64,000 nucleotides of DNA. It comes from a virus. Of the stretch, positions 61,371-64,000 are shown one piece after another. The stretch lies in IMG/VR virus record IMGVR_UViG_3300021356_000002; one strand, written 5' to 3'. The first letter of the stretch is position 1. Each line of letters begins with the position of its first letter. The notes below the pieces were generated by a model. The model searched no databases. It saw only the letters and a list, made by a program, of their open reading frames with translations, and was not told where the DNA came from. Both the position numbers and the translations under genes were made by a program.

Positions 61371-62751
61371 CAACTCGGGTTGTTTGGCGATTTTTGCGTC
61401 GAGCCCTAGCAAGTCGCGCACGATCAAGCACCTTATCGTACTCACGCTCTTTGCGATCTCGCTCTCGGCGATCTTGTTGTCGATCTTGTCTTTTGTCGAA
61501 TGAGATACGTTGCTTTGCCGCATCTACTTCGTCGCCGCGTATTTCTTTTACGTCAGCTTTTTCTTGACCAGCGATATTCTTCTTTGCTTTCTTAGTAGCG
61601 GCGGGTGTTCCCCATTCGGGCTGATCTTTGTACCAGTTGTCTGTCTTACCCTCAGCGAACGTTGGCTGATAGTTGACTAGGTGCTTAGGCATGATGCCCT
61701 TCTTGACCATCTGACGAAACATTTTGTCAAGTGTACGAACGTCAGTATCCGTCATCTTAGCGGTCTTGATAAGATTGTTTCTAGCATCGCCTGGATTCTT
61801 TTTGCGTAGGTCTAGAAACGTACGTATCGCAAACTTGTACTTCTTTTTGTTGATTGTGCGATCAAGAAAGGCATCAACTTGAGGCATGAGATCCCGCATG
61901 AGACCACTTCCGCCCCAACCTGCTTCATCGATTAGTTCAACGTCCGTAATCCATCTGCGAGAGAAACTGCCATCAGCCATATCGAGAATAAGATAATTGG
62001 TACCAAGGCGTGAGACACGACCCATTTCACCAGTTTCTTTGACCATAACTTGATCGCCTTCATTAAACAATACTCCTTCAATAAATTTTTCTCGCATGTC
62101 AGATACGGGCTCAAGTTCAACGTGATTCTTGAACTGAGTCATTTCTTTTAAGCCCATACCAGAGCGTACATCATTAAACAGTTTTTTCGCATCACGGCTA
62201 CTCATTGTAGATGGCACACCTTGTGCGAACGTTGTGAAATCATTATTCTTAGCATTTTCACGTTGCTTTGATGCAGACATGCCTGTCACGTCATCGGCAT
62301 CTGGATCTCGCTCACCAGCAGAGACTACAGTGATGCGCTCAAAGTTATAGAAACCATGTCGCGCTTTCTCACCGTTGTACTTTTCTAGAAGCGTTTTGAA
62401 TTCGGTAATACGATCAGCACCGACAACCATGGTAATGCGATTAAAGCCTTGATCGTAGAGACTAGTCGCGACTTCGAATACGTTTCGAAGTTTCTTATCC
62501 ATGATTACGTTACGTGCCTGTTTTGGGAACATCTTACGAACGTGCTTAATTTTCTGTTCGTAAGTGAGAGGATTCTTTTTGGCATCACTTGACTGTGACA
62601 AGTAAACTTTATAGGGATTCTTGCCTGCCTTTGTAGCCATGACCTTTAACAGTTTGCCATGTCCGATTGTCGGCGGATTCATCCTACCGAATGTGAAAAA
62701 TACCTCGCGTTGCTCTTCAACGAGATAATCTTTAAAAGACGGAAAACTCAT
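61366..62751 (-). CDS. HIGH-superfamily (cytidylyl/NMN adenylyl) nucleotidyltransferase with C-terminal modules
   Basis: FGRMNPPTIGH; VVGADR; SAGERDPD; MSASK.R. Confidence 0.85.
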   Translation of the reverse strand: MSFPSFKDYLVEEQREVFFTFGRMNPPTIGHGKLLKVMATKAGKNPYKVYLSQSSDAKKNPLTYEQKIKHVRKMFPKQARNVIMDKKLRNVFEVATSLYDQGFNRITMVVGADRITEFKTLLEKYNGEKARHGFYNFERITVVSAGERDPDADDVTGMSASKQRENAKNNDFTTFAQGVPSTMSSRDAKKLFNDVRSGMGLKEMTQFKNHVELEPVSDMREKFIEGVLFNEGDQVMVKETGEMGRVSRLGTNYLILDMADGSFSRRWITDVELIDEAGWGGSGLMRDLMPQVDAFLDRTINKKKYKFAIRTFLDLRKKNPGDARNNLIKTAKMTDTDVRTLDKMFRQMVKKGIMPKHLVNYQPTFAEGKTDNWYKDQPEWGTPAATKKAKKNIAGQEKADVKEIRGDEVDAAKQRISFDKRQDRQQDRRERDRKEREYDKVLDRARLARARRKNRQTTRVV

Positions 62752-63188
62752 TTCTTATCTGAACCACCCATTCTACGTTCTTTTTCCATTTTACGAATTT
62801 GAGGCAACATCTTGCGAGCAATCTTATCGACTCTCGGCTTCATCTTTTCGATGCGCTTTTCAATTTCTTGGCGACGACCAGCAGGTAAATCAGATCGAGT
62901 CTGACCCTTTGCTAGTTTCTTGAACAGGGTGTTGATTGCGGCTTTGCGGGCGCGTTTCATAAGACGTTTAGGATCTGCCGCTTTTCTAGCCGCTCTCCTT
63001 CTGCCCATGGCAATCTTTGCTTTATTCTTCTTCATCGCTCTGGCACGTGCACGGCGCTGTTGAAAGTTCAACGCTTCGTCTACGTCTTCGCCAATACGTC
63101 CTCTCTTACGCTTCATAGCGGCGTATGAGATTTCTTCTGGCATGCCAGGCGTGTAGTCAACTGTTAGAAAATCTTTAAAACTTAACAT
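62748..63188 (-). CDS. Basic internal-head-type protein
   Basis: MLSFKDFL; VDEAL..QQR..RAR; RARKAA. Confidence 0.7.
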   Translation of the reverse strand: MLSFKDFLTVDYTPGMPEEISYAAMKRKRGRIGEDVDEALNFQQRRARARAMKKNKAKIAMGRRRAARKAADPKRLMKRARKAAINTLFKKLAKGQTRSDLPAGRRQEIEKRIEKMKPRVDKIARKMLPQIRKMEKERRMGGSDKK

Positions 63189-63189
63189 A

Positions 63190-64000
63190 CTAGTTTCTCG
63201 TTGGTTTGTCCCATCCCTTTAATATATCGGGTGAAAAGTTGTTATAGCTAAACTCTAGCCTATCAACCAATTTCACTGCGTCACCACCAAGTGTGTCAAT
63301 TGCTACATAACCTTCTTGACCAGTAGTCTTGAACCCGTTGCGAGTTTTCACAAAAGTTTCAAGACTACTGAGTCTGTTTAACTTATTTATAAGTTTTAGT
63401 TTGACAACTACAATTAATTTTTGTAGTTCAAACATCTTAACTAAGTTTGCTTTGTTTTTGTTGCTGAAGAACTTGAGGAGGTCGTCGCGCTTCGCTTTTT
63501 GCGTGGCTTTGCCGCGCGGGGTTTTGCGGCTGTCGATTTCTTTTTGGTACTTGTTTTTGATCCAGCGGATGAGCTTTTCCGTGTGGGCGCGGGTGTCTTT
63601 GATTTGACTTCCGGCTCGGACGTAGGTGTTGTTGAACTGCTCGATGTGCTGGGCGAGGGACTGGTTGGCTTCGAGGGCTCTGAGGGTTGTGCCCGAGATC
63701 CCGTTAAACAATTTACCAATTTGCGAAAGATATTCATTTATTTGCTCCGTTTCTCGTTTAGTCAGAGTCGCATTGCGAACGTCACGTAGCATTGCATCCT
63801 GTGACCATACTTTAGTGGATGGATTCAATTTACTTACATCAACTCCGTACGATGCTCGCATCGTTTCGAAGCTATTGCCTGTATATGTAGTATGCCATAC
63901 AATCCCGATTTTAGCGTTCAGAACAGCAGAAGCCATTTTAACGGGAATAGCATATACAAGAGTATTAGGGTGAAACGTAACATAGGATTCTCCATCGATT
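63190..64000 (-). CDS. DUF6267-like protein (3' part; frame open past window end)
   Basis: TFHPNTLVYA; KIGIVWHTTY.G; EGYVAID..AVKLVDRLEFSYNNF. Confidence 0.8.
   Translation of the reverse strand, partial: IDGESYVTFHPNTLVYAIPVKMASAVLNAKIGIVWHTTYTGNSFETMRASYGVDVSKLNPSTKVWSQDAMLRDVRNATLTKRETEQINEYLSQIGKLFNGISGTTLRALEANQSLAQHIEQFNNTYVRAGSQIKDTRAHTEKLIRWIKNKYQKEIDSRKTPRGKATQKAKRDDLLKFFSNKNKANLVKMFELQKLIVVVKLKLINKLNRLSSLETFVKTRNGFKTTGQEGYVAIDTLGGDAVKLVDRLEFSYNNFSPDILKGWDKPTRN
63384..63391 (-). promoter_or_regulatory. Late promoter TATAAATA
   Basis: Exact consensus about 200 nt upstream of 63188. Confidence 0.55.
63441..63737 (-). CDS. Overprinted +1-frame gene: 98-aa Ser/Thr/Pro/Lys-rich basic disordered protein
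   Basis: GGAG SD 7 nt before ATG; host-frame wobble positions almost T-free over exactly this span. Confidence 0.7.
   Translation of the reverse strand: MNIFRKLVNCLTGSRAQPSEPSKPTSPSPSTSSSSTTPTSEPEVKSKTPAPTRKSSSAGSKTSTKKKSTAAKPRAAKPRKKRSATTSSSSSATKTKQT

Follow-up and report, generated by a model that had tools for sequence, protein, structure and literature searches.

The DUF6267 gene at the end of the 64,000-nucleotide stretch of DNA analysed here (the window) very probably contains a second, genuine gene overprinted on the same strand in its +1 frame, in an uncultured marine T4-like phage. A first-pass annotation, made from the letters of the window, had proposed such a gene, and the comparison with relatives supports it in three respects: the frame is open for far longer than codon usage and the host protein predict, its start codon and ribosome-binding site are conserved, and the reduction in synonymous variation is confined to the overlap. 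We propose that ribosomes would start on the DUF6267 mRNA at an internal GGAG-N7-ATG and produce a strongly basic product of 98 residues, in which a short amphipathic helix near the N-terminus is followed by a long disordered body rich in Ser, Thr, Pro, Ala and Lys. The second codon position of the +1 ORF is the wobble position of the host gene, and selection on the hidden protein would appear there as wobble bias: T would be retained at the wobble position where the hidden helix needs hydrophobic residues, and excluded downstream, where neither hydrophobic residues nor stops would be tolerated. In this downstream part C would be favoured over A and G at four-fold sites because hidden NCN codons form four-fold boxes, which frees the first codon position of the host and leaves the hidden residue dependent on the host second position alone. 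Such use of NCN codons appears to be a simple way to lessen the conflict between two frames. The features are listed in Table 1; host codons are numbered within the window portion of the gene unless full-length numbering is stated.

Table 1. Features of the DUF6267 locus, in window coordinates
Feature	Position	Strand	Remarks
Host DUF6267 gene, 3′ 270 codons (with stop)	63190..64000	-	Pfam PF19782, E 7e-52; runs off the window end
Hidden +1-frame ORF (putative overprinted gene)	63441..63737	-	98 codons + TAG stop; frame open in at least 57 distinct relatives sharing the start
GGAG Shine-Dalgarno (SD) sequence	63745..63748	-	7 nt before the hidden ATG; from rare host codons ACG-GAG (84-85)
Hidden start ATG	63735..63737	-	From host AAT-G (codons 88-89); hidden-frame stop immediately upstream
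N-terminal helix (predicted amphipathic), hidden residues 3-13	63699..63731	-	AlphaFold2; host wobble T conserved
T3-depleted, C3-rich patch	63442..63705	-	Host codons 99-186; would code for the disordered S/T/P/A/K body; 51/85 hidden codons NCN
Antisense ORF, 96 codons	63499..63789	+	Exact codon-for-codon complement of the host frame

The window holds the 3′ two-thirds of the host gene, and the neighbouring genes all lie on the minus strand. In an identical contig the full-length gene (L002:2255-3472) encodes a protein of 406 aa that matches PF19782 with an E value of 1e-105. This protein has a ligase-like KWDG motif. In its AlphaFold2 model, an N-terminal α/β domain weakly resembles the RNA editing ligase 1xdn (Z 5.9, 114 residues aligned), and residues 218-349 form a confident helical bundle, with a weak match to a YqeY-like helical region (Z 6.8, VIA-align). 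The hidden ORF overlies host residues 225-323, within the bundle and in the part of the host that is most variable in all lineages. Sequence searches of the PDB gave no match for the host protein and Foldseek gave no clear one, and the literature searched held no mention of DUF6267. The host N-terminus reads MNFLEFITEQ or a variant of it and resembles the capsid-targeting sequence of T4. Directly downstream (62748-63188, minus strand) lies a gene for a very Arg/Lys-rich protein of 146 aa (PHROG 23027), which starts with MLSFKDFL, like the N-termini of its neighbours.

The anomaly that drew attention to the locus was an abrupt loss of T-ending codons from the DUF6267 frame at about 63440-63700, and our counts confirm it. 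Over host codons 99-186 (63705-63442) only 1 of the 88 third positions is T, in the codon AGT at 63609-63607; C accounts for about 59%, A for 23% and G for 17%. Codon third positions in the window average 33% T and 21% C, and the flanks of the DUF6267 gene have 33-40% T-ending and 13-17% C-ending codons. The patch departs from the window only in that T is down and C is up, the shares of A- and G-ending codons being the same. At two-fold pyrimidine sites C outnumbers T by 21 to 1 in the patch, against 16 C and 24 T in the flank; four-fold sites of the patch end 25 times in C, 6 times in G, 4 times in A and never in T (flank: 31 T, 26 A, 12 G, 9 C); and all 6 Ile codons are ATC. Two-fold purine sites, by contrast, keep the genomic preference for A (A 16, G 8 in the patch; 25 and 10 in the flank), with AAA still more frequent than AAG, and the shift is therefore not a general rise in GC3. 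When the 74 long ORFs of the 64 kb were all scanned in segments of 60 codons, the 15 lowest T3 values came from the patch, down to 1.7%, and the minimum elsewhere was 15%. The patch had also been said to coincide with a same-strand +1 ORF. This holds precisely at the 3′ end, because the hidden TAG (63443-63441) is created by the first Leu codon that does not end in C (TTA, host codon 186), all preceding Leu codons within the patch being CTC. The 5′ edge lies 32 nt, or 11 codons, inside the ORF, the first 11 codons of which are T-rich at the host wobble position.

Relatives were drawn from 80 IMG/VR loci with DUF6267 homologues at 68-100% identity, which were codon-aligned. The GGAG that the first-pass annotation had pointed out 7 nt ahead of the hidden ATG is present at 63748-63745, and in relatives SD and ATG co-occur with the ORF across lineages. 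AAT stands at the start site in 21/21 ORF lineages versus 6/19 others, and wobble G is found at both SD codons in 16/21 lineages with the ATG versus 1-2/19 others; in both comparisons the bearers are partly defined by the trait under test. Fisher tests of these associations treat lineages as independent, and their p-values overstate that independence. A phylogenetically independent-pairs test of ATG versus SD and of ATG versus open frame was concordant but underpowered, with n = 7 pairs only; for ATG versus SD, 3-4 pairs agree and none disagrees (p at least 0.125). When the overlap columns are left out of the tree, it requires at least 10 changes of state for the ATG and at least 8 for the SD; the ORF was lost repeatedly and is therefore dispensable. 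The motif GGAG-N5-9-ATG occurs 22 times on the minus strand of the window, where about half of the occurrences open ORFs of at least 75 codons, several of them being placed at the beginning of a frame, where a gene would start. A fusion of host and hidden frames by programmed frameshifting was considered and set aside: in most lineages the ATG is directly preceded by a hidden-frame stop, and conservation falls on the ATG and SD.

The same patch is found in the nearest clade (L006-L015, 79-81% host identity), with T3 of 5-7%, C3 of 57-61% and 0 internal +1 stops. Farther out it weakens, to a C3 of about 0.5 in L040, L045 and L063 and of 0.3-0.4 in L053, L062, L060, L052 and L067; in these lineages an 83-99-codon ORF begins at the same ATG. 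Seven lineages carry versions of 55-67 codons, and about 20 have no ATG and show early stops in the +1 frame. Internal +1 stops range from 0 in the strong clade through 1-2 in many other lineages to mostly 2-8 in those without the ATG. The combination that would speak against a gene, the same patch in relatives together with +1 stops, was looked for, and the relatives with the strongest patch have no internal stops in that frame.

Scanning IMG/VR for the start context ACGGAG..RT.AATGAA..TCTT matched at least 118 contigs and 65 distinct sequences, 57 of which lie inside DUF6267 genes. All 57 are open for at least 55 codons, and among the copies that do not run off the contig every hidden ORF has 67-106 codons, most commonly 87; several clades have lengthened it from 87 to 98-106 codons. 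The same search pattern also matches the true start of an unrelated conserved phage gene, whose product begins MKIFLDTADYD, in L115, L119, L146, L154, L156 and L094; genuine gene starts thus make use of this context. In the collection of cultured phages that was compared, none carries the ORF. The sole cultured-phage match by DNA search, C48C1, has a homologue without the patch and with 6 stops in the +1 frame, and the ORF is also absent from the homologues of Melnitz and Stenotrophomonas phage DLP_6.

If codons were used as in the remainder of the gene, the +1 frame would be open with a probability of 0.0005-0.05 per lineage. Within the window's own clade, permuting synonymous codons inside the region leaves the +1 frame open in 30-80% of trials (P 0.3-0.8); codon composition explains the open frame there, and the argument therefore rests on the relatives. 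In about 11 lineages with ordinary wobble composition (C3 0.12-0.26, T3 0.2-0.5), permutation of synonymous codons keeps the frame open in only 0.1-1% of trials, so that stops are avoided by codon arrangement, beyond what composition provides. The +1 frame is thus kept open in relatives, some of which have no C bias at all. It is also the only frame to be consistently open across lineages; the +2 frame and the three antisense frames are not, the antisense frames having 0-2 stops in the close clade and more elsewhere. In the window itself the +2 frame is open too, and each antisense frame has at least one stop. Since these frames are not consistently open in relatives, the open +2 frame of the window and the antisense ORF at 63499-63789 appear to be by-products, and we judge the latter to result from the avoidance of TTA, CTA and TCA by the host.

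Two observations concern variants of the locus. In one strain variant (L003, L004 and L005, 99% identical, together with the RNA-library contig X16 record 28), CAA has become TAA two codons before the normal hidden stop, and four host-synonymous changes alter hidden residues (A to E, R to P, and K to R twice). In addition, three public gene calls (P0002, P0003 and P0004) join the host and hidden frames of DUF6267 in one protein; their source contigs therefore carry indels in the overlap, which may be sequencing errors or natural frameshift variants.

Synonymous variation provides another line of evidence. Among 14 bearer lineages the pairwise synonymous difference lies near 0.6 for the greater part of the gene and falls to 0.30-0.45 at host codons of about 216-320 in full-length numbering, in which the SD occupies codons 221-222, the ATG 225 and the hidden stop 323. 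Among 18 non-bearer lineages, in contrast, it stays at about 0.5-0.67 in the same columns. Host amino-acid divergence in the overlap is equal in the two groups (0.39 in bearers vs 0.38 in non-bearers), so that a recent common origin of the segment does not account for the synonymous drop. Suppressed synonymous variation, which the first-pass annotation had named as a check, is found only over the ORF and only in lineages that bear it, and it is strongest at the SD, the ATG and the first 12 hidden codons. Nearly no sites in the overlap are doubly synonymous: each wobble change that is synonymous in the host is non-synonymous in the hidden frame. A second zone of low synonymous difference was observed near the 3′ end of the gene, at host codons of about 331-350 and 366-400 in full-length numbering (about 63190-63420 in the window); it occurs in bearers and non-bearers alike (0.31-0.41 and 0.31-0.51) and represents a second constraint.

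The pattern of wobble conservation depends on position. At host codons 90, 91, 94 and 98, wobble T is present in 13-14 of the 14 bearers and gives hydrophobic hidden residues 3, 4, 7 and 11; from host codon 99 on, bearers exclude wobble T. Non-bearers are mixed at all of these sites and at the SD codons. No other result distinguishes coding as well as this position-specific conservation does from a preference for C at the nucleotide level. Nor is C enrichment what bearers have in common: three lineages (L086, L093 and L132) have a T3 of 2-5% and yet a C3 of only 0.43-0.47, and because T is low in them without high C, the shared trait is the avoidance of T, that is, of hydrophobic hidden residues. 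The earlier proposal that the loss of T reflects selection against hydrophobic residues in the hidden protein holds in the light of these lineages.

Three other explanations have to be weighed against an overprinted gene. It is distinctly unlikely that the internal SD and ATG are used but yield a polypeptide without a function of its own, initiation itself being regulatory, for example in ribosome loading or mRNA protection. Such a role would suit the concentration of synonymous constraint at the SD, the ATG and the first 12 codons, as well as the wide variation in the length and character of the ORF; the hidden body is largely a projection of the host second codon positions, its basic charge is a by-product of the frame, and the frame might be hydrophilic just to render an unavoidable by-product harmless. 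However, the easiest harmless by-product would be one ended by an early stop, yet stops are avoided for 67-106 codons even in the absence of composition bias. The lengthening of the ORF in several clades and the conservation of the N-terminal amphipathic pattern also argue against this explanation.

We consider it very unlikely that the constraint acts on nucleotides, favouring a T-poor, C-rich mRNA (and a G-rich, A-poor opposite strand) with the +1 ORF as a passive consequence. Candidate elements would be a rut-like unstructured C-rich tract, an R-loop or origin element, or a recombination site. On the plus strand the GC skew at the patch reaches +0.3 and the AT skew -0.67, and wobble C automatically opens the +1 frame and here also the +2 frame, while each antisense frame keeps at least one stop. 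This explanation leaves unaccounted for the conserved wobble T at hidden codons 3, 4, 7 and 11, the rare ACG-GAG codons together with the ATG, and the avoidance of stops in lineages of ordinary composition; moreover, just the +1 frame is consistently open across lineages. The predicted RNA fold is ordinary (z -1.29; 14/100 shuffles fold as well), and no Rfam family scored above the gathering threshold.

An assembly chimera, or a segment acquired by recombination from a GC-rich relative, suggested by the sharp-edged rise in local GC from about 0.40 to 0.57 and by the mosaic nature of phage genes (a flank-based tree scatters bearers among non-bearers), is largely refuted and can hardly be correct: T gives way to C alone at the wobble position while A3 and G3 stay at genome level, whereas the GC-rich homologue of Stenotrophomonas phage DLP_6 has high C3 and G3 and low A3 along the whole gene; the host protein is as diverged in the patch as elsewhere; and the segment recurs on 4 other IMG/VR contigs at 99-100% protein identity and is spanned in two further metagenome runs. 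The chimeric or recombinant GC-rich segment that the first-pass annotation had allowed for is thus absent, independent assemblies dated 2018-2025, from salt-marsh, seawater, marine and sponge metagenomes, carrying the segment. Among the 4 runs examined, a 5.4-kb sponge-metagenome contig spans the whole stretch in question and a marine contig covers 63212-64000. A contig from an RNA library (X16 record 28) covers 63351-63763; it informs on neither transcription, strand nor frame, and DNA carry-over is possible.

The putative product of the overprinted gene, as computed from the predicted protein, has 98 aa and 10.2 kDa, a pI of 11.5, 61% S/T/P/A and 8% hydrophobic residues, and its N-terminal sequence is MNIFRKLVNCLTG. 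AlphaFold2 with 25 homologues predicts a helix at residues 3-13, with a hydrophobic moment of 0.6-0.8, and coil elsewhere, at a mean pLDDT of 64. The first-pass annotation had described a histone-H1-like tail, but the basic character of this tail is not a selected novelty. Relatives that do not carry the ORF have a +1 frame just as basic in this Lys-rich region of the host; the tail is therefore a pre-existing property of the frame and a by-product. Assignment to histone H1 or another known DNA-binding basic family was likewise rejected, with no Pfam or PHROG match and the same basic charge in non-bearers. What selection seems to have changed is the number of hydrophobic and acidic residues, which is lower, and the presence of stops, which are gone. 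Conserved host residues fix the greater part of the hidden sequence, so that conservation at the level of the hidden protein is inseparable from constraint on the host. We suggest that the product may be a disordered polycation tethered through its helix to a membrane or a partner protein, and that it may bind nucleic acid or other polyanions.

In five lineages (L114, L145, L153, L124 and L126) the hidden protein is rich in hydrophobic residues, with 67-87 aa and possible membrane segments; these forms share the N-terminus and basic tail of the window's version and have no wobble C bias. The hidden gene family appears to be evolving quickly. No homologue of the hidden protein was found in Pfam, PHROG, a word search of 5.8 billion proteins or the ESM Atlas, where the best score of 0.86 was below the lead threshold, and the 5.8-billion-protein collection contains no call of the hidden ORF. 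A profile search of 1.84 billion representatives gave 4 hits, all of them hidden-frame or frameshifted fragments of the DUF6267 locus, and 0 free-standing homologues.

In a dataset from which bacteriophages and genomes above 30 kb were excluded, viral genes proven to overlap show an excess of C, Ser, Pro and Arg and a deficit of A and T (PMC6195259). The hidden ORF fits this composition signature in an extreme form. It resembles the overprinted viral genes studied by Pavesi and co-workers (PMC6195259; review PMC8227390) in being a same-strand alternative frame within an older gene, with C increased and T decreased, a Ser/Pro-rich, predicted disordered product without homologues, and suppressed synonymous variation in the older frame. 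It differs in its setting, a large dsDNA T4-like phage, in being fully nested, in the unusually extreme T3 of 1% and in that its translation is predicted.

Among phages, the arrangement is close in form to that of λ Rz1, an o-spanin whose small gene lies within Rz in the +1 frame, has an SD and ATG of its own and encodes a proline-rich protein; this nested spanin arrangement was reportedly set out by Summer et al. in 2007. Like Rz1, the hidden ORF is small, lies wholly within the +1 frame of a larger phage gene, has its own SD and ATG and would encode a proline-rich protein. Unlike it, the hidden protein has no lipoprotein signal, hydrophobic signal core or conserved lipobox Cys; Cys10 is found in a few lineages, the window's included, and is F, Y or S elsewhere. 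The host, moreover, is not an i-spanin but a ligase-like enzyme without a transmembrane helix in the model, and the locus is not a lysis cassette. An Rz1-type spanin was ruled out on these two grounds, the missing conserved lipobox and the nature of the host gene. Classic second-frame proteins of phages also include B, K and E of PhiX174 and the internal out-of-frame ORF 30.3′ of T4. The PhiX174 genome of 5.4 kb is under strong size constraint, whereas the genome considered here is probably larger than 100 kb, and compaction is therefore not an obvious driver.

The internal proteins of T4 that carry a capsid-targeting sequence are small and very basic, with a short amphipathic N-terminal helix and cleavage at (L/I)-x-E. 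The hidden protein is likewise small and very basic, with a short predicted N-terminal helix, and DUF6267 and its neighbours start with similar M-x-x-F-K-x-hydrophobic motifs. In contrast to the T4 proteins, no (L/I)-x-E protease site follows the hidden helix. The motif is matched by 16/711 candidate starts in the window, and the resemblance to capsid targeting is therefore weak; we regard a T4-type capsid-targeted internal protein as a lead only.

Taken as a family, the hidden genes appear to be widespread in uncultured marine T4-like phages, with 55-106 codons and products that range from hydrophobic to fully disordered, and the window's clade would represent the extreme disordered form. We tentatively propose, with slightly less than even confidence, a de novo gene family caught at several evolutionary stages, from hydrophobic-rich forms of 55-87 codons to fully disordered ones of 98-106 codons, in abundant uncultured marine phages. 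According to this scenario, the window's clade would have fixed C at the position that the two frames share and so settled the conflict of dual coding: hidden codons would fall into NCN boxes, host first positions would be free, and the hidden protein would become a projection of the host second positions, selected only for its class (hydrophilic, basic and stop-free). The product may then be a helix-anchored polycation, either packaged or membrane-bound.

Overprinting itself is a familiar phenomenon in viruses. In large dsDNA phages, annotation hardly ever includes fully nested genes of about 300 nt, and gene callers forbid them; the present case suggests that a simple anomaly in wobble composition can flag such genes. 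With more than 100 contigs and repeated loss and lengthening, the family would offer a well-sampled natural series for studying gene birth by overprinting and the sharing of one sequence between two frames. Marine T4-like phages have a conserved module made up of a ligase-like gene, a basic protein gene and a cytidylyltransferase-like gene, to which the overprinted gene would contribute a previously unrecognised protein.
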